The notes under the pieces were generated by a model. It saw only the letters and a list, made by a program, of their open reading frames with translations. It did not search any database and was not told where the DNA came from. From an uncultured Gemmatimonadaceae bacterium (GTDB lineage Bacteria > Gemmatimonadota > Gemmatimonadetes > Gemmatimonadales > Gemmatimonadaceae), in the NCBI GenBank assembly GCA_963740355.1, contig CAVUDW010000002.1, forward strand, positions 2,272,001 through 2,336,000: DNA of 64,000 nucleotides, in the 5' to 3' direction. How positions within the stretch are numbered: position 1 is the stretch's first letter; each line of letters starts with the position of its first letter. Both the position numbers and the translations under genes were made by a program. Below are positions 996-49,042 of this stretch, one piece after another.

Positions 996-2017
996 CCGCG
1001 ATCCTTCAGGCGGGACGGGAGGTTGTCGATCAGCGTCTTCAGGTCCGCGGCATGCTCCTGCGTCGTCACCACGGTCAAGCCATCGATCGCGACGACCACC
1101 AGGTCCGAGACGCCGTAGAGCACGACGCTCGGTCCATCGGCGTGGACCACGTTCCCCGAGGACATGACTGGGGTCACATCGCCGTGGAGTGCATTGCCCG
1201 CGGCGTCCCCCGGTCGGACGCGGCGCAATGCGGCCCAGGTCCCAACGTCGTCCCAGCCAAACGCGCCGGGTACCACGAACACGCGGTCACTCCGCTCCAG
1301 CACGCCGACGTCCACGCTGATCGACTGCACAGCGCCGAAAAAGCCCGCCAAGGTCTGTTCGCCGTTTGCCCGCGACACTTCGGGACAGTGCGCGTCAACC
1401 TCCTTTAGGAACCGCGACGCGCGCCAGACGAAGATGCCGGAGTTCCAGAGGCAGCCGGCGGCGATCAGTTCGCGTGCGCGGACACGGTCAGGCTTCTCGA
1501 GAAAACGGGAGACGCGAAAGGCGACCTGCCCCATGCGTTCGCCCGGCTCGATGTATCCGAAACCCGGATCCGGGCGCGTCGGTGTCACCCCCACCGTCAC
1601 CAGCGCATCGTTGGCTTCAGCGACGTTCGCTGCGCGCAGCAGGGCGTTGCGGAATCCATCGGGATCGCCAATCGCCCAATCGGCATGCACCGAAAGCATG
1701 ATCGCATCGGGGTCACGCGCGAGGATGGTGCGCGCCGCCCACGCCAGCGCGGCCGCCGTCCCTGCCGGTCGCGGCTCGCAAATCACATTCGCGGCCGGTA
1801 CCTCGGGCAGCATCGCCGTGATCGCGGGCTGCAGCGTGGCGTTGGTCAGGATCAGCATCCGATCGCCCGGTACCAACGGCAGCAGGCGATCGACGGCATC
1901 GCGAAGCATCGGCTGGCCGGTGACCAGGGGCAGCAGCTGCTTTGGGAGAGCGGGAGTGCTGATGGGCCAGAAACGAGACCCGACTCCACCGGCAAGAATG
2001 ACGGTCCAGAGCGACAT
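992..2017 (-). CDS. manC: Mannose-1-phosphate guanylyltransferase
   Basis: VILAGGVGSRFWP..PKQLL, EPRPAGTAAA, GFGYIE, FLEKPD, WNSGIF, WDDVGTW motifs. Confidence 0.93.
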   Translation of the reverse strand: MSLWTVILAGGVGSRFWPISTPALPKQLLPLVTGQPMLRDAVDRLLPLVPGDRMLILTNATLQPAITAMLPEVPAANVICEPRPAGTAAALAWAARTILARDPDAIMLSVHADWAIGDPDGFRNALLRAANVAEANDALVTVGVTPTRPDPGFGYIEPGERMGQVAFRVSRFLEKPDRVRARELIAAGCLWNSGIFVWRASRFLKEVDAHCPEVSRANGEQTLAGFFGAVQSISVDVGVLERSDRVFVVPGAFGWDDVGTWAALRRVRPGDAAGNALHGDVTPVMSSGNVVHADGPSVVLYGVSDLVVVAIDGLTVVTTQEHAADLKTLIDNLPSRLKDRG

Positions 2018-2160
2018 AAGTTGAGTTAGGGAGACAGTTTCCGCAGAGACGCTCCCCGTGGTCCCGAGGTATCAACGCCCGCCAGCGTGTCGCCGCAGGG
2101 CAGCGGGCGCGGACGCATCGAGCCCGGACGCATCAGGACCGACGGTCAGCCAAGCGAGGG

Positions 2161-2514
2161 TCAGGCAAGCGACGCGATGTGCTGGCGCAGGCGCCGGAGT
2201 TCGCCCAGCAGCGGCGGCAGGGCCGACGTCGGCCGCGCCAGGACCACCAGCAGGGCATCCTCGCTCATCGCCGAGATGATGGCGATGGTGCCGGGAAATT
2301 CCAGCACCGCCGTCTGGAGCTGGCCAGCGCGGGCCGCCTTGCCGAGCGCGTCGGCCGCCGAAAACACGGCCGGCGAATGGGCCGCCACCTGTTCGCCATC
2401 CAGATACGAGACGGCGTCACCATCGACCAGCAGGCCGTCGCGACCAAGGACGATCGCAGCTTCGACGCCGTCGCGCCGACGCACGGCGTCGACCAGATCA
2501 CGGATACTTGCCAT
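2161..2514 (-). CDS. Roadblock/LC7 domain protein (MglB/MglC-like)
   Basis: GVEAAIVLGRDGLLV and C-terminal LLVVLA..LPPLLGELRR pattern; ATG at 2514 preferred over the 2547 track start. Confidence 0.8.
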   Translation of the reverse strand: MASIRDLVDAVRRRDGVEAAIVLGRDGLLVDGDAVSYLDGEQVAAHSPAVFSAADALGKAARAGQLQTAVLEFPGTIAIISAMSEDALLVVLARPTSALPPLLGELRRLRQHIASLA

Positions 2515-2566
2515 GGGGGCGGTGTAGAGAGGGGTGAATTGGCCCAACTATCGGTGCCACAATCGC

Positions 2567-2595
2567 TTGAAGAGCTTCGCTCGGTCCGGTATTCT
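2567..2595 (+). promoter_or_regulatory. Putative sigma70 promoter for lipoprotein-serS operon
   Basis: TTGAAG-17 nt-TATTCT. Confidence 0.55.
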
Positions 2596-2636
2596 ACCCT
2601 TCGCACTCTACCGTGTCACCCCGCATCCACTGCTGC

Positions 2637-17486: not shown

Positions 17487-20342
17487 TTGAGCAAGTTGCG
17501 CGTCGTGGATATGGCCGGTGAGTTCGAGATCAACGTGGACGAAGTGATCGCCATGTTGCGCTCGATGGACGTGCCGGTGTTGAGCCCGCAGAGCGGGCTG
17601 ACCGATGATCAGGTGTCACGGATCCGTGCACGGTGGGAGCGCGAAAAGCGCGCCCGCCAGGCCAAGGCCGCGGCACCTGCTCCTGCGGCTGCCCGTCGGC
17701 GTAAGGGAGCCGCTCCCGCGGCCGAACCCGCAGCGCCGACCCCCGCAGCGGCGCCCGACGTGCCCGCCGAGCCGGAAGCCGGCGCGCCGGCCGTTCGTCG
17801 CCGCAAGGCGGCTGACGTCGCCGCGCAGCAGGCCATTCATGATGCGACTGCTGCCGCCGAGGCCGAAGCACACGCTGCCGCCGAGGCGGCGCATGCTGCC
17901 GCGATCGCTGCTGCCGCTCCGCCACCGCCGCCACCGCCCGTCGAGGTTGCGCCACCTGCGCCTGTGATCGAGATGGCCGCCGCATCGGGCGACAGTGCCG
18001 CCGCGCCGGTCGCCCCGGTCGCCGTCACGCCGCCCGAAGCGCCCCCGGCACGCCCGGCGCCCGTCGCCAGCGCGTCGCCGACGACCGTGCAGCCGATGCC
18101 GACCCCGTACGCCAGCGCCTCCCCCAGCACGCAGAGTGCCGGCGGCTCGGGCGCGTCACGTCCGCCACTTCGTCCCGCGTCAGCTGGTCTTCCGGATCGG
18201 CCCCGTGCCGCCGGTGCAGGCTTGCCGCCGCGCGGCCGTCCTGGTCAGGGTGGTGGAAACTTCAGCGGCCCGCGTCCTGTCGCCTCGGCGACGCCGTCGT
18301 TCGGTGGCCCCGCCGTCCGTCCGCCTGGTGGTGGTGCGCCGCGTCCCGGTGGCGGTGCTCCAGGTGCCGGCAGTACCGCGCCTCGCGCCGGCGGTGATCC
18401 GCGTCGCGGTGGTGGCAAGAAGGGCAAGCGTGGGTCGGTCGATCAGGCCGCCGTCGACGCGAACATCTCGAAGACGATGAGCGCCTTGCGCGGCCCGGCT
18501 CGCCGTGGTCGTCGCTTCGACGACTCTGCATCACGTGAGGAGCTGGAGGCGTTCCGCGCCGCCGCTGCCGAACGTGAGCGGACGACGGTGCGCGTCAATG
18601 AATTCATCACGGTGTCGGAACTCGCCCAGATCCTGAAGGTCGCGGCCACGGAAATCGTCGGCTTCGCCTTCAAGCATCTCGGCTTGATGGTCACGATCAA
18701 CCAGCGACTCGACTTCGACCAGATCGAGTTGATCGCCGGTGAGTTCGGTTTCCAGGCTGTGAAGGAAGAGGAGTACGCCGTCGAGGAAGAAGCGGACAAG
18801 ATCGTCGATGCCGCCGAGGACCTCGTCTCGCGTCCGCCTGTCGTCACCATCATGGGTCACGTCGACCACGGCAAGACGTCGCTGCTCGACTACATCCGCA
18901 AGGCGAACGTCGTCGCAGGTGAAGCCGGTGGTATCACGCAGCACATCGGCGCCTACCATGTCACGCTGGCTGGTGGCAAGACGATCACCTTCCTCGACAC
19001 GCCGGGTCACGAAGCCTTCACGGCCATGCGTGCGCGAGGTGCACAAGTCACCGACATCGTCGTGCTGGTCGTTGCCGCTGACGACAAGGTGATGCCGCAG
19101 ACGATCGAGGCCATCTCGCATGCACGCAATGCCGGTGTGCCGCTGGTCGTTGCGATCAACAAGATCGACGCCCCGGGCGCAGATGCGGCCAAGGTGCGTC
19201 AGGACCTGCTGCAGCAGAACGTGGTGCTCGAAGACTTCGGTGGCTCGGTGCTCGCCAGCGACATCTCGGCAAAGAAGGGCACCAACATCGACCAGCTGCT
19301 CGACCAGATCCTGCTGCAGGCTGAAATCCTCGACCTCAAGGCCAACCCGGCGCGTCGTGCGCAGGGTGCCGTGGTCGAAGCGCAGCTCGATCCGGGCAAG
19401 GGCCCGGTCGCGACGGTGCTGATCCAGAATGGCACACTGCGCGTCGGTGATGACTTCATCTGCGGTGTGTTCTCCGGTCGCGTTCGCGCGCTGCTCGATG
19501 AGCGCGGCAAGATCGTGAAGTCCGCCGGCCCGGCGATCCCGGTGCAGGTGCTTGGCATGACGGGCGTTCCGATGGCCGGCGACCAGTTCGTCGTCGTCGA
19601 GGATGCCGCCGAAGCGCGTGAGATTGCGCAGCGTCGTGAGCGTCTCGAACGCGAAGCGCGCAGCCGTCGCACCACCAAGTCCTCTGTCTCGCTGGCTGAC
19701 TTCATGGCCGCCGCGACATCGGGCGAGAAGCGCACGCTGAAGATGCTCATCAAGGCTGACCAGGGCGGTCCGGCGGAAGCACTCGCCGACGCACTGCAGC
19801 AGCTGTCGAACGCTGAAGTTCAGGTCGAAGTCATCTCGCGTGGTGTCGGCGCGATCTCCGAGAGCGATATCCTGCTCGCGAAGGCCGCTGGTGCGATCAT
19901 CGTCGGCTTCCATGTGCGCCCGGACAACAAGGCGCGCTCGGCTGCCGAACGCGAAGGCGTCGACATCAAGCTCTACCGGATCATCTACGAAGCGGTCTCC
20001 GACGTGAAGTCTGCGCTCGAAGGCATGCTCCGCCCGGAACAGCGCGAAGTCATCTTCGGCGAGGCCGAAGTTCGCGAAGTCTTCAAGGTGCCGAAGCTTG
20101 GTGCCATCGCCGGTTGCATGGTTCGCAGCGGCATGATGAGTCGTCAGGGCAAGATGCGCGTGATCCGCGACGGTGTCGAAGTGTACGAAGGCAGCATCTC
20201 GTCGCTCCGCCGCTTCAAGGACGACGCGAAGGAAGTGAAGGAAGGCTACGAGTGCGGTATTGCGATCGAGAATTTCAACGACATCAAGGTCGGTGACGTG
20301 CTCGAATGCTTCCGCACCGAGGAAATCGCGCGCACGCTCTAA
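17487..20342 (+). CDS. infB: Translation initiation factor IF-2
   Basis: GGAGG then TTG (MSKLRVVD); [28 protein letters not shown]; long Ala/Pro/Gly-rich N-terminal linker. Confidence 0.97.
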
Positions 20343-39894: not shown

Positions 39895-41420
<1,526 letters not shown>

Positions 41421-41673: not shown

Positions 41674-44619
<2,946 letters not shown>

Positions 44620-44741
44620 CCAATACTGTGACCAGCACGCAAAAGCCTGGTCACTTACGCAACTCGGTTGCGTCGCCAATCGCGAAATCTGCGACGTGGT
44701 TTCATTACCCACGATCATCTGCCTTCATCACTTGACTAATT

Positions 44742-44859
44742 CGCTGGCGACTAGAGCGTCGGGGCCACACTCGTTCCCATTCCGAACACGATCGTTAAGC
44801 CCGACAGCGCCGATGGTACTCCGGCCGCGAGGTCGCGGGAGAGTAGGCCGTCGCCGGCA
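44742..44859 (+). rRNA. rrf: 5S rRNA
   Basis: CCCATTCCGAACAC, GTTAAGCCC..CGCCGATGGTACT, GGGAGAGTAGG; terminal helix GCTGGCGAC/GTCGCCGGC. Confidence 0.97.
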
Positions 44860-44864
44860 CCTTT

Positions 44865-44909
44865 GCGAAACCCCCGGTTGCTTCATGCAACCGGGGGTTT
44901 CGTGTGTTT
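44865..44909 (+). terminator. rrn intrinsic terminator
   Basis: CGAAACCCCCGGTTGC-TTCAT-GCAACCGGGGGTTTCG then TGTGTTT. Confidence 0.85.
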
Positions 44910-44951
44910 ACTATTTTCCGAACGCCGATCCGCGTTCCCACCTCGAGTACC

Positions 44952-45872
44952 ATGCCCGATCCCACACCGAACGACCCGACCCCGACCAACCCAACACCCC
45001 CTACCACCCGGGCCGGACACGTCGCACTGGTCGGAAAGCCCAATGCCGGAAAATCGACGCTCCTCAATCGACTCCTCGGACTCAAGCTCGCCATCACCAG
45101 CCCCAAACCGCAGTCCACCCGCGTCTCCGCTGTCGGTATCGTCTCGACCGACGACTACCAGATGGTGCTCCTCGACACGCCTGGCCTGCTCGATCCGAGC
45201 TACACGCTCCAACGCAGCATGCTCGCCAGCGCCATCGCCGCCCTCCGTGATGCCGATGTCGCTGTTTATGTGCATGATGCGACGAATGGACCGCCGCCGC
45301 CACTCGAATCGCTGGTGCCACCCGGCACGCCACTCCCGCGCACGCAGCTGACCTGGGCCAACAAGGCCGACCTGCTCAACACGGGCAATCGTGCCAGCCT
45401 CGCCGCACTGCCCAATGTGATCGTCGGCAGCGCCAACGATGGCGACGGCATCGAGGAACTCCTGACACGCGTGGCCGAGCACCTGCCGCTGTCGCCGTTC
45501 CTCTATCCCGCCGACGAGCTGAGCACCCAACCGGTCCGGTTCTTCGCCGCCGAGGCGATCCGCGAATCAGCGTTGGCCATCCTGCACGAAGAGGTGCCCT
45601 ACGGCATCTTCGTCGATATCGAGGAGTTCCGGGAAACCAAGACGCCGATCTATATCCGCGCCGTGGTGTACGTCGAGCGCGACAGCCAGAAGGGCATTGT
45701 GCTCGGCGCCAAGGGCAAGACGATTCGCGAAATTGGGACGGCCGCCCGTGTGCTCATCGAACGCCTCGTGGAAGGGGCGGTGTACCTCGATCTCTGGGTC
45801 AAGGTCATGCCCGACTGGCGCAAGGACGCGGTTGCGCTTCGCCGCTTCGGATTCACCGTCCCGCAGGAGTGA
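44952..45872 (+). CDS. era: GTPase Era
   Basis: GKPNAGKSTL, PQSTR, DTPG, NKAD, HEEVPY, KH domain SQKGIVLGAKG. Confidence 0.96.
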   Translation: MPDPTPNDPTPTNPTPPTTRAGHVALVGKPNAGKSTLLNRLLGLKLAITSPKPQSTRVSAVGIVSTDDYQMVLLDTPGLLDPSYTLQRSMLASAIAALRDADVAVYVHDATNGPPPPLESLVPPGTPLPRTQLTWANKADLLNTGNRASLAALPNVIVGSANDGDGIEELLTRVAEHLPLSPFLYPADELSTQPVRFFAAEAIRESALAILHEEVPYGIFVDIEEFRETKTPIYIRAVVYVERDSQKGIVLGAKGKTIREIGTAARVLIERLVEGAVYLDLWVKVMPDWRKDAVALRRFGFTVPQE

Positions 45873-45892
45873 TCGTGCCGTCTGGAGCCAAC

Positions 45893-46066
45893 ATGCCGAC
45901 ACTTCCATCCGACCTGCTTGCCATTCTGCGATGCCCGAGGTGCAAGGGGCACCTGAGGCTCGTCGAAGGCGATCGGCCATCTCTCGAATGCCCCGTCTGC
46001 CGACTCGGATATGCGATCCGGGACGGCATCCCGATCATGCTGATCGACGAGGCTTCTTCGCTCTGA
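45893..46066 (+). CDS. Trm112/YcaR family protein
   Basis: LLAILRCPRCKG..CPVC..YAIRDGIPIMLIDEA. Confidence 0.9.
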   Translation: MPTLPSDLLAILRCPRCKGHLRLVEGDRPSLECPVCRLGYAIRDGIPIMLIDEASSL

Positions 46067-46109: not shown

Positions 46110-47105
46110 ATGATGCTGTCTCCCTCTGCGCCGCCCGTCGTCCCGACTCCGATCGGTGTGCTCACGGCCGGGTCGTTGCCGTCCGGCGTCGCGGAGGCCA
46201 TCGCCCGCTGGGCGCTCGAGCAGGGTCATCCCGTGATACATCTCGACGCGTCCGCGTGGGAGAGAGCGACCGTGCGAGCCGCGGCGCCGCTGCTGATCGT
46301 GCTCGGTGTCGACGGTTGCGAGGATGCGATGCGTATGGCCCTTCGCGGCCTGAAAGCGGACTCCGCGACGCACACCGTGCCGGCTCTGGTGGCGGTCGCA
46401 TCGCACAGCGCATCCGCCTGGTTGAATGCGGGCGCGGACGATGTGCTCACGGAGCGGCAGGATCGATGCGAGCTGGAATCGCGCCTCACCGCCGCCATCA
46501 CACGATCCCGTCGCGACGTGCAGGTGAATCCATCCACACGCCTGGCGGGGTCGGACGCAATCACCGACGCGATCGCCGCACGCATGGAGCGTGCTGAGGC
46601 CTTTGCCGCGTGTTACGCGGATCTCGATCACTTCAAGGAATTCAACGATCGCTATGGCTATGCCATGGGTGATGATGTGATACGGACCGTCGCTCGACTG
46701 ATCGTCGAGGTGGTCGATACTACCGCTGGCGAACACGGCTTTGTGGGGCACATTGGAGGCGACGACTTCCTCTTCCTCGTGCCGCTGGAGCAGGCCGCGA
46801 CGGCTTGCGACATGCTGGTCCGACGGGCAGATGAGACGTTGCCGCAGCGATACTCTGCAATTGATCGTCAAGCTGGCTACTTTTTCGGCAAGGATCGCCG
46901 GGGTCGACTTGATCGCGTTCCACTCATGACGCTCTCGATTGGTGTCGTCACCAACGAGCGGCGTCGCTTCACGAGTGCAGCGCAAGTGAGCGAGCTGGCG
47001 ACTGAAATGAAGACGTACGCCAAGACACTGCCCGGTTCCGTCTGGGCGATGGATCGGCGATCGGACGGCGAGTCGGCCTACCCACCCGAGGAGAAGCCTC
47101 AGTGA
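46110..47105 (+). CDS. Diguanylate cyclase with degenerate receiver domain
   Basis: DLDHFKEFNDRYG..GDDVI, GHIGGDDF, SIG; N-terminal REC-like region ending AGADD. Confidence 0.88.
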   Translation: MMLSPSAPPVVPTPIGVLTAGSLPSGVAEAIARWALEQGHPVIHLDASAWERATVRAAAPLLIVLGVDGCEDAMRMALRGLKADSATHTVPALVAVASHSASAWLNAGADDVLTERQDRCELESRLTAAITRSRRDVQVNPSTRLAGSDAITDAIAARMERAEAFAACYADLDHFKEFNDRYGYAMGDDVIRTVARLIVEVVDTTAGEHGFVGHIGGDDFLFLVPLEQAATACDMLVRRADETLPQRYSAIDRQAGYFFGKDRRGRLDRVPLMTLSIGVVTNERRRFTSAAQVSELATEMKTYAKTLPGSVWAMDRRSDGESAYPPEEKPQ

Positions 47106-47800
47106 ACGTGACGTGTCAGGACTGTCGGTCTGTATTCCGTGTGGACCCTGCAAAGGTGCCACCGAACGGCGTCAGGGCGCGGTGCAGCGTCTGCGGTGCA
47201 ATCCTCAGGATCACGGTCGGGGCTACGACGCCGCTGACGAATCCGGCCATGACGCCACGCGCGGTCACGCCGGTTCGCACGCCGGCGGTGGCGGCGTCGA
47301 CGCCGGCCAGCATTCCAGGGATTCGGCGCACGACGCCGCTCCCGAGTGAAATGGCGGAGGTCGGCACGCCGTACCCCTCGCGGCCGACGCCCTCGGTGTC
47401 GACGGCGGGCATGGCGTCCGCGCGGCCGCTGGTGCCACCGCCACCGCCGTCGCCGGGTCAGCTCGTGAATTCGCCCCCCCCGGTGCCATCGGTGGCGCTG
47501 CCGACGCCTGCGCCAAGCGGTGACCCATCGAAGCGCGTCATCAATCCGTTCCTGCGCAGCGACCCGATGACACGCGCCAAGCGCCTCGCACGCGCGCTGG
47601 TGTCCGACATGGTGGCCTATCAGCCGCAGAAGCGTGCCGAGGGCCTGGCGAACGGGACGCTGAAGCAGCTGTTCCGCGACGAGATCCGGAAGAGCTACGA
47701 CGAGTACGTGGAGCAGGTGGGGCGCGATGTCGCTGAGTCGACCGCGTTCTTCCAGGACGCGTTGAACGAAGTGCTGGCTGAGGGGAAACGCGTCTTCTGA
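47102..47800 (+). CDS. MJ0042-type zinc-ribbon protein with Pro-rich linker and RomX-like C-terminal helical domain
   Basis: CQDC..FRV..CSVC; C-terminal AKRLARALVSD..Y..FFQDALNEVL. Confidence 0.75.
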   Translation: MNVTCQDCRSVFRVDPAKVPPNGVRARCSVCGAILRITVGATTPLTNPAMTPRAVTPVRTPAVAASTPASIPGIRRTTPLPSEMAEVGTPYPSRPTPSVSTAGMASARPLVPPPPPSPGQLVNSPPPVPSVALPTPAPSGDPSKRVINPFLRSDPMTRAKRLARALVSDMVAYQPQKRAEGLANGTLKQLFRDEIRKSYDEYVEQVGRDVAESTAFFQDALNEVLAEGKRVF

Positions 47801-47864: not shown

Positions 47865-47904
47865 GAGCCGTCCTCCCGACCTCGGGGGGACGGCTCCCGT
47901 TTTT
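47865..47904 (+). terminator. Hairpin with T-tract directly upstream of prfB (terminator/attenuator-like)
   Basis: GAGCCGTCCTCCCGA-CC-TCGGGGGGACGGCTC then CCGTTTTT. Confidence 0.55.
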
Positions 47905-47925
47905 CTCATGGCTCCATCGACGCTC

Positions 47926-49042
47926 ATGGCTGATCTCGCCCAGTTGACGACCCAACTCACCACGGATGCTGAGCGGCTCGACGAGTTGCGGAGGTATCTT
48001 TGACCTCGAGAGCCAGCGGGAACGCCTGACGGCGCTGGAAGCGCAGATGGCCGAGCCAAGCTTCTGGAATGATCAGGAGCGTGCGCAGGTCGTGGTGCAG
48101 CAGGTGAAGACGTACAAGCAGTGGGTCGAGCCCTTCGATCGCCTCGTGCGCGGCGTGTCCGATGCACGCGAACTCGTGGAGCTGCTCGAGGTCGAGCCCG
48201 ACGCCACCATGGAGGCTGAGCTGGTTCGCGACGCCGATGCAGTGCGCGAACAGATCGCCGCCTATGAATTGCGCTCATTGCTCCGCGGCCCGGACGACTT
48301 TCGCGCTGCGCAGCTCGAGATTTCCGCTGGCGCCGGTGGTACCGAAGCGCAGGACTGGGCGCAGATGCTCATGCGCATGTACACGCGCTGGGCCGAACGA
48401 AAGGGCTATAGCATCGAGATTCTCGATCTGAGCGAAGGCGAAGAAGCCGGGATCAAGGGCGCCGTGCTCGAGATCACCGGTGAATACGCCTACGGGTTCT
48501 TGCGTCCCGAGGCGGGCGTGCATCGCCTGGTGCGCATCTCGCCATTCGATTCACAGGCGCGCCGGCATACGAGCTTTGCCTCGGTGTTCGTGTATCCGGT
48601 GGTGAATGAGGAGATCAACATCGAGATTCGCGATGAAGATCTCCGGATCGACGTCTATCGCGCATCTGGTGCTGGTGGCCAGCACGTCAACAAGACGTCG
48701 TCGGCCGTTCGCATCACGCACCTTCCCAGCGGCGTCGTGACGGCCTCGCAGGCGGAGCGCTCGCAGTTCAAGAACAAGGCGACCGCGATGAAGCAGCTGA
48801 AGAATCGGCTCTACCAGATCGAGGCCGACAAGCAGACGGCCGCCAAGGCGGCGCTCGACGCCGGCAAGGCCGACGTGTCGTTCGGCAGCCAGATCCGCAG
48901 CTACGTGTTCCAGCCGTACACGATGGTGAACGATCATCGCACGGAATTGAAGATCGCCGATGTGGCGAAGGTGATGGATGGCGCCATCGATCCATTCATC
49001 GAGGCATACCTGAAGCAGCAGGGCGAGCCAGCGCAGAAGTAG
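47926..49042 (+). CDS. prfB: Peptide chain release factor 2 with programmed +1 frameshift
   Basis: ORF1 MADLAQ..RRYL (47926-48000), GGAGG-TAT-CTT-TGA-C site, ORF2 from 48002 with SPF and GGQ motifs. Confidence 0.97.

Follow-up and report, generated by a model that had tools for sequence, protein, structure and literature searches.

Does a cyclase gene that runs into the gene of a RomX-like protein join cyclic di-GMP (c-di-GMP) signalling to a small-GTPase polarity module? The question is raised by two neighbouring genes, gene A and gene B, in 64,000 nucleotides (nt) of DNA from an uncultured Gemmatimonadaceae bacterium (GCA_963740355.1, contig CAVUDW010000002.1, positions 2,272,001 to 2,336,000 of the forward strand). 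We call this whole stretch the window, and positions are those of the window unless a locus is named. The original prediction, made from the sequence alone, described gene A as a diguanylate cyclase and gene B as a zinc-ribbon protein with a RomX-like domain, and proposed a c-di-GMP link to the MglA polarity module. To our knowledge, experiments on RomX have been confined to Myxococcus, in which RomR is required and the role of RomX, as guanine nucleotide exchange factor (GEF) or as effector, is disputed. Our best overall explanation, which we consider likely but far from certain, is that gene B is the form of RomX found in Gemmatimonadota and that the cyclase is at most an accessory partner. 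The two genes comprise the following features:

46110..47105, + strand: gene A, 331 residues, pseudo-receiver plus cyclase of the GGDEF family with the signature GGDDF
46155..46514, + strand: residues 16-135 of gene A, a receiver-like (beta-alpha)5 domain without acidic pair, conserved acceptor Asp or Lys
46536..47051, + strand: residues ~143-314 of gene A, a GGDEF domain carrying an extra hairpin at 257-271
46755..46769, + strand: GGDDF signature of gene A, G216-F220
47102..47105, + strand: GTGA overlap of gene B start and gene A stop
47102..47800, + strand: gene B, zinc ribbon, disordered linker and RomX-like domain, 232 residues
47102..47215, + strand: MJ0042/ZitP/GltJ-type zinc ribbon, residues 1-38
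47216..47551, + strand: Pro/Thr/Ala-rich linker, residues 39-150, predicted to be disordered
47552..47797, + strand: RomX-like three-helix bundle, residues 151-232
47582-47584, 47591-47593 and 47606-47608: R161, R164 and D169, the counterparts of RomX R11, R14 and D19

The zinc ribbon, linker and RomX-like domain of gene B

The coordinates of the open reading frames (ORFs) confirmed the GTGA overlap: the TGA stop of gene A lies at 47103-47105 and the GTG start of gene B at 47102-47104. This start is sound, since the homologues of gene B have the N-terminus MNVTCQDC in common. Residues 1-34 matched Zn_ribbon_4 (PF13717, E 5.1e-12, 46 bits against a cut-off of 30.3) and the ribbon also matched MJ0042_CXXC (TIGR02098, E 1.9e-8, 33.9 bits against a cut-off of 20.9). 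The four zinc-ligand cysteines (C5, C8, C28 and C31) were invariant in an alignment of 23 family members, from which a profile was also built. In the AlphaFold2 model, the ribbon (residues 1-38) had a predicted local distance difference test (pLDDT) value of about 92, the linker (about 40-150) was of low confidence, and the helices at 155-225 reached about 96. The succession of MJ0042-type ribbon, Pro/Thr linker and helical C-terminus was thus described correctly in the original prediction.

Using sequence searches against the PDB, we found M. xanthus RomX (8zna_A) to be the best match of gene B (E 3.2e-7). The alignment is ungapped and pairs residues 155-229 of gene B with residues 5-79 of the 95 residues of RomX; with the 23-member profile, the match rose to E 7e-10. 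Foldseek also returned 8ZNA as the top PDB match of the model, with a probability of 1.00, a template modelling score on the target of 0.74, a root mean square deviation of 1.6 A over 75 columns and 28% identity (E 4.2e-3, computed on the whole two-domain model). RomX was the only significant PDB match of the C-terminal domain and covered it end to end, and no Pfam or NCBIfam model covered the C-terminus of gene B in a library scan. In helix 1 of RomX, R11, R14 and D19 are reported to face MglA; R11A/R14A abolishes binding of MglA-GTP, and the R11/R14 and D19 mutants both abolish exchange activity (10.1101/2024.02.20.581209). Their counterparts R161, R164 and D169 were invariant in all 23 sequences. 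The resemblance to RomX that the original prediction proposed is thereby supported by sequence, by fold and by the conserved MglA-contact residues.

The ribbon had its own matches. PDB searches with gene B alone and with the 23-member profile both paired it with the zinc ribbon of GltJ (7zok, profile E 3e-7) and with ZitP (2nb9, profile E 2.5e-6), and the ZitP zinc finger was the second Foldseek match of the gene B model. All three proteins begin with a CxxC...CxxC ribbon and continue into a disordered region. They differ in what comes next: GltJ continues with an MglA-GTP-binding linker, a GYF domain and a membrane segment, and ZitP binds PopZ, whereas in gene B the ribbon is joined to the RomX bundle. 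The GltJ ribbon is reported to bind the C-terminal helix of MglB and to raise the efficiency of this GTPase-activating protein (Attia et al. 2024, PMC11135422). Foldseek matches of the RomX fold reported in a preprint include a 'Zinc finger/thioredoxin putative domain', which its authors relate to the GltJ ribbon (10.1101/2024.02.20.581209).

The length of the linker varies widely among homologues, whole proteins measuring 147-473 residues. A linker motif, RPLVPPPPPSPGQ (47435-47470, residues ~112-123), is kept in the closest homologues and not in distant ones; a proline-binding domain may recognise it.

Counted at E <= 1e-3 in a protein database clustered at 90%, gene B had 3302 relatives. 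Among the best 120 of these, named proteins were called 'zinc-ribbon domain-containing protein' or 'predicted Zn finger-like uncharacterized protein', and the organism names given were Gemmatimonas, Gemmatimonadaceae or Gemmatimonadota. The 82-residue RomX-like domain on its own found 1018 representatives at the same threshold, and in about 140 of the best 150 it was placed at the very C-terminus. Two proteins, P0330 (889 residues) and P0376 (764 residues), gave four separate RomX-like stretches each and thus seem to carry several RomX-like repeats in tandem.

MglA, MglB and the search for RomR

The genome encodes both MglB and MglA, for which the original prediction had proposed a search. The pair is found in locus L003 (1432..1926 and 1942..2628), beside a Roadblock match (PF03259), on the same contig as gene B and about 0.9 megabases away from it. 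Compared with the M. xanthus proteins, MglA matched with E 3.6e-83 and MglB with E 4.4e-31. The Pfam Ras model (PF00071) missed MglA; its sole match fell in a 997-residue frame of the window (~18846-19319). A preprint model places E108, E111 and E115 of M. xanthus MglA against RomX (10.1101/2024.02.20.581209), and this acidic patch reads D108, E111 and E115 in the MglA found here. The protein is 228 residues long and has an insertion of about 35 residues after residue 159, between the equivalents of M. xanthus residues 159 and 162.

Several further Roadblock proteins were observed. A stand-alone Roadblock/LC7 protein of 128 residues (window 2161-2547, - strand, PF03259, E 1.5e-11), with no GTPase gene seen adjoining it, could be an MglC-like adaptor. 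Locus L002 (734-1833; G000:C2:2161811-2165074) encodes a TPR plus Roadblock protein (247 residues) and a Roadblock protein (114 residues) in tandem, which would be a further Roadblock pair in addition to mglB. The long ORF after the L002 pair we take to be DnaA-like, from its Walker-A-like motif GASGLGKTH alone.

We then considered the whole phylum. In a survey of 201 genomes, which served as one set for the RomX-like domain, MglA and the cyclase, the RomX-like domain was detected in 152 and MglA in 157. Four unpublished genomes (G057, G157, G182 and G097), each with domain and MglA, are part of this set; leaving them out gives 148 and 153 of 197. By family, the RomX-like domain and MglA were detected in 37 and 38 of 38 genomes (f1), 95 and 96 of 96 (f2), 3 and 3 of 3 (f3), 3 and 4 of 4 (f4), 1 and 1 (f5), 0 and 2 of 11 (f6), 9 and 9 of 23 (f7), and 3 and 3 (f8), while none of the 21 genomes of f9-f12 had either. 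The nine positive genomes of the patchy family f7 were identical for both searches (G061, G079, G116, G124, G141, G143, G159, G164 and G199). Among the 201 genomes, every one with a RomX-like domain also had MglA, and no family had more RomX-like than MglA positives. The genome under study had one RomX-like match only, and the zinc-ribbon/RomX fusion is the standard single-copy form in Gemmatimonadota. The long form of MglA was seen in f1-f3 and forms of ~196-206 residues in f4, f5, f7 and f8; many f1 and f2 genomes had a second MglA-like match.

An independent phylogenomic study lists a gene of the same phylum as RomX. Its Table S1 gives MglA (GAU_1116), MglB (GAU_1115) and RomX (GAU_1577) for Gemmatimonas aurantiaca T-27 and has no entry under RomR or RomY, a pattern that no other species in the table shows (PMC9481161). 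GAU_1577 is therefore like gene B in phylum, in the presence of MglA and MglB and in the blank RomR and RomY cells. We know it as a locus tag only; the family genomes suggest a ribbon architecture and a cyclase neighbour for it, neither of which is mentioned in the available text of that study. A search for literature joining RomX and Gemmatimonad returned nothing.

RomR, the third gene that the original prediction had named for a search, was not found. Searching by architecture (a receiver, a Pro-rich region and an acidic tail), we examined 56 of the 85 receiver matches in the genome. Of these, 34 had at least 100 residues past the receiver, and none of the 34 was Pro-rich (maximum 7% Pro).

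Could the C-terminus of gene B be a generic three-helix domain that happens to resemble RomX, with the ribbon acting outside the MglA system, in ZitP-like polar anchoring or in a translation-linked role? The modest E-values and identity given above, the lack of a Pfam or NCBIfam model, the missing helix-3 features described below and the housekeeping neighbours era and prfB would all fit such a domain. Against it stand the end-to-end match to RomX as sole significant PDB hit, the invariance of three functionally tested helix-1 residues, the strict nesting within MglA-positive genomes, f7 included, and the independent listing of the Gemmatimonas gene as RomX (PMC9481161). We regard this explanation as very unlikely.

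Several observations nevertheless weigh against equating gene B with RomX. In RomX, L75/R76 and W87 of helix 3 hold the receiver domain of RomR (RomR-REC; 10.1101/2024.02.20.581209), in a numbering that is one off from the chain index of 8ZNA. L75/R76, the only Leu-Arg pair of helix 3, align to A226/E227, and gene B ends at F232, short of the W87 position. With the helix-3 contacts absent, the domain is not a full functional copy of RomX. A second preprint describes RomRX as an effector of MglA-GTP and not as a GEF, so that the GEF role is itself disputed. Five MglA-positive genomes (G089, G044, G027, G075 and G135) had no RomX-like match. Because the genomes are related and thus not independent samples, a small number of evolutionary events may account for the co-occurrence, which we take as supportive and not as statistical evidence. 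Finally, RomR was sought by architecture and not by a RomR sequence search, and the 29 receiver matches that were skipped were mostly long multi-domain frames.

Weighing both sides, we think that gene B encodes a zinc-ribbon-fused, RomR-independent variant of RomX, very probably one that binds MglA-GTP. Judged by its residues, the domain has the surface with which RomX faces MglA but not the one with which it holds RomR. With M. xanthus RomX (MXAN_3350, 8ZNA) it shares the three-helix bundle over the full domain, the helix-1 residues and the tie to MglA, the gene B domain being found only in MglA-positive genomes. In contrast to M. xanthus RomX, the bundle forms the C-terminus of a 232-residue fusion with a ribbon and a disordered linker of about 110 residues, in a genome where no RomR was found. 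By analogy with Myxococcus, the bundle would bind MglA-GTP via helix 1. Because RomR was not found and the helix-3 features for binding it are missing, the ribbon and linker may stand in for RomR, supplying in cis the anchoring or scaffolding that RomR provides in trans.

Gene A and the order of genes at the locus

Gene A matched the GGDEF model (PF00990) with E 2.6e-14 and 53.8 bits against a cut-off of 23.8, over profile positions 7-107 of 161. Its PDB sequence matches were GGDEF cyclases, some of which (PleD and DgcR) extended over the N-terminal half. The receiver model PF00072 did not match gene A in the Pfam scan. The AlphaFold2 model (pLDDT 86, predicted template modelling score 0.77) displayed a receiver fold at residues 16-135 and a complete GGDEF domain, and its best fold matches were full-length WspR, PleD and DgcR. 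Gene A shares with WspR (3BRE), PleD (1W25, 2WB4) and DgcR (6ZXB) the two-domain architecture, over ~325-350 aligned columns, and the conserved substrate and metal residues of the GGDEF domain. It differs from them in having the signature GGDDF, a hairpin insert at 257-271 and no RxxD site, and in the loss of the receiver's acidic pair, conserved acceptor Asp and Lys.

The signature, RxxD and receiver features hold among 24 aligned homologues. The receivers had no acidic pair at 21-27 and no conserved Lys after GAD(D/E)V, and the acceptor column read G in 9, D in 8, S in 3, A in 2 and P in 2 of the 24, with Gly in gene A itself. The pseudo-receiver probably cannot be phosphorylated. GGDDF, D171, K176, N179, D188, K301 and K305 were invariant in 24 of 24. 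The signature departs from [G/A/S]G[D/E]E[F/Y], and no RxxD inhibitory site precedes it, residues 208-211 reading E/A/D - x - G - F. We take the invariant residues to be equivalent to the metal, base and phosphate contacts of PleD. Via PleD numbering, D188 presumably occupies the Hypr specificity position (Ser348 in GSU1937). With Asp at this position, the use of GTP and the production of c-di-GMP are predicted for gene A.

The naming of gene A as a diguanylate cyclase holds for the family and is probable for the activity: though the signature reads GGDDF, the GGDEF domain is complete, and the enzyme is therefore probably active. Precedents for the signature exist on both sides. GSU1937 of Geobacter sulfurreducens was the first GGDDF enzyme reported to be active, and it resembles gene A in the signature and in having no EAL or HD-GYP domain; PA3258 is cited as an inactive GGDDF protein (PMC8835794). 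GSU1937 differs from gene A in its Hypr cGAMP-type Ser348, where gene A has D188.

Are gene A and gene B a unit? The surrounding features are:

39895-41420, 41674-44620 and 44743-44859: 16S, 23S and 5S genes of a complete ribosomal RNA (rRNA) operon, directly ahead of era
44864..44913, + strand: strong terminator-like hairpin and T-run, the end of the rRNA operon and upstream boundary of the era unit
44904..45872, + strand: era GTPase (MMR_HSR1 and KH_2), conserved upstream in relatives
45869..46066, + strand: Trm112/YcaR-like small zinc-binding protein, 65 residues, overlapping the era stop by 4 nt
47865..47905, + strand: terminator-like GC hairpin and T-run between gene B and prfB
47926..49042, + strand: prfB (release factor 2), behind the terminator-like site and followed by lysS

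Since terminator-like sites bracket era, the trm112-like gene, the cyclase and gene B, these four would lie on one transcript, and the arrangement suggests their co-transcription; era is the putative first gene of the unit. Its true start is probably an internal ATG near 44952. The short ORFs listed at 43000-44900 are spurious, being inside the 23S and 5S genes. prfB starts with ATG at 47926 and contains the canonical +1 frameshift site (GGAGG ... TAT CTT TGA C, with CTT TGA C at 47998-48004), so the ORF listing shows only the downstream frame, from 47966.

We compared 65 loci from 64 genomes. The upstream side was assessable in 58 genomes; L012, L013, L034, L035, L039 and L065 end too early and were not judged. 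A cyclase orthologue was located immediately upstream of gene B in 49 of the 58, across at least six families, so the gene pair is conserved in most relatives. In 26 loci both gene ends could be placed: 19 had the 4-nt overlap, one overlapped by 1 nt, and six had gaps of 5-38 nt. A 4-nt overlap alone is commonplace. Here, the exact ATGA/GTGA overlap was retained across families at only 40-50% protein identity.

This arrangement could reflect a hard-wired c-di-GMP/polarity module, in which cyclase and RomX-like protein form a complex, perhaps with the pseudo-receiver on the bundle as RomR-REC is on RomX; c-di-GMP would be made where MglA-GTP sits, or the state of MglA would control the cyclase. 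Adjacency and overlap fit this idea, as does a pseudo-receiver without phosphorylation pocket, which implies that some other input is needed. The RomX fold is reported to occur in association with receiver domains (10.1101/2024.02.20.581209), and the C-terminal F232, conserved at 90% or more among the homologues, could serve as W87 does in RomX. Precedents for c-di-GMP are reported as well: DmxA is needed for the allocation of RomR in M. xanthus, and in Bdellovibrio RomR interacts with the putative c-di-GMP receptor CdgA, with the cyclase DgcB proposed at the same invasive pole. However, the RomX contacts to RomR-REC are not conserved in gene B. A co-variation of the residue at the RomX R76 position with the cyclase was considered and rejected, as this residue is basic in loci with (L036, L045 and L047) and without the cyclase (L037 and L044). 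For the full cyclase with residues 145-232 of gene B, the predicted complex scored 0.00 in two runs (mark 0.32); controls were not folded, and the result counts neither way.

The gene order itself argues more for synteny. Despite its clearly unrelated function, prfB followed gene B in all 64 genomes, which indicates that the neighbourhood is simply syntenic; with prfB even more conserved than the cyclase, adjacency here is no evidence of function. In nine of the 58 genomes (G184, G091, G188 and six of genus g67) no cyclase adjoins gene B. The slot is filled by PorV/UPF0164-like and DUF5683 genes in G184 and g67, and in G091 and G188 the Trm112-like gene directly precedes gene B and leaves no space for another gene. 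Among such slots, L037 (1669-3669) and L049 (4772-5743) hold a PorV/UPF0164-like outer-membrane protein by weak Pfam matches, L037 also a DUF5683 gene. No cyclase orthologue was found elsewhere in G061, G141, G091 and G184 (best E 1e-7 or worse), and G188 had only a 35%-identical paralogue.

Conversely, the cyclase exists without gene B. At E <= 1e-25 it was positive in 149 of the 201 genomes, including 2/2 of f9, 3/3 of f11 and 3/3 of f12, all without MglA and RomX-like gene, and 7 of these 8 loci read GGDDF in a pattern search. prfB-lysS comes straight after the cyclase in both f9 genomes, with no intervening gene. The f9 cyclase retains the receiver-like part (in L078 the match begins at residue 27); this domain is therefore independent of the RomX-like protein. 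Thus, cyclase and RomX-like gene are kept or lost independently, while RomX-like gene and MglA are not, and gene order at this locus can be conserved without shared function. These observations count against any obligatory role of the cyclase, and we consider the hard-wired module unlikely.

Could the two genes then be wholly unrelated neighbours in a housekeeping region (rrn - era - trm112-like - X - prfB - lysS), their overlap a product of compact packing? The invariant prfB-lysS, the 4-nt overlap that era and the trm112-like gene have as well, the other genes found in the slot and the persistence of either gene without the other favour this view. It is less readily reconciled with the terminator-like site, which separates gene B from prfB and not from the cyclase, or with an overlap that, by informal judgement, is kept beyond what drift would lead one to expect at this identity. 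We give it slightly less than an even chance.

Our preferred explanation, gene B as a RomX form with a WspR/PleD/DgcR-like pseudo-receiver cyclase usually coupled to it in translation, accommodates both sets of facts. Since the coupling is separable both ways, the MglA module would not require the cyclase, which at most would feed into it or respond to it as an accessory in particular lineages. The c-di-GMP link of the original prediction is thus reduced to adjacency in gene order; on that basis, functional cross-talk between cyclase and RomX-like protein is possible, if rather doubtful. A bolder version, in which a single chain replaces RomR/RomX, bridges MglB and MglA-GTP and, in most lineages, docks the phosphorylation-independent GGDDF cyclase for local c-di-GMP at the MglA pole, appears quite improbable.

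The arrangement had also been thought undescribed. This does not hold for its RomX part, as RomX without RomR was already tabulated as GAU_1577 (PMC9481161), a zinc-finger association is reported in the RomX structure preprint (10.1101/2024.02.20.581209), and the fusion is standard in the phylum. It does hold for the coupling, in so far as the available text of the RomX and cyclase literature (PMC11025332, PMC11255338) gave no description of a cyclase gene next to romX.

Polarity control in Gemmatimonadota

Recognising a RomX relative in gene B is a solid, if incremental, result; the cyclase link is put forward as a hypothesis. The c-di-GMP connection in Myxococcus (DmxA) and Bdellovibrio (CdgA) is reported at the phenotypic or interaction level only; if the cyclase coupling is real, the locus would offer a direct molecular handle on cross-talk between c-di-GMP and MglA polarity. 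Should the docking of the cyclase on a single chain prove true, a small-GTPase polarity switch and the synthesis of a second messenger would be hard-wired to each other genetically at this locus. Independently of the cyclase, a phylum-wide, zinc-ribbon-fused RomX that would do without RomR amounts to a natural experiment on RomX acting alone and on how it is anchored.

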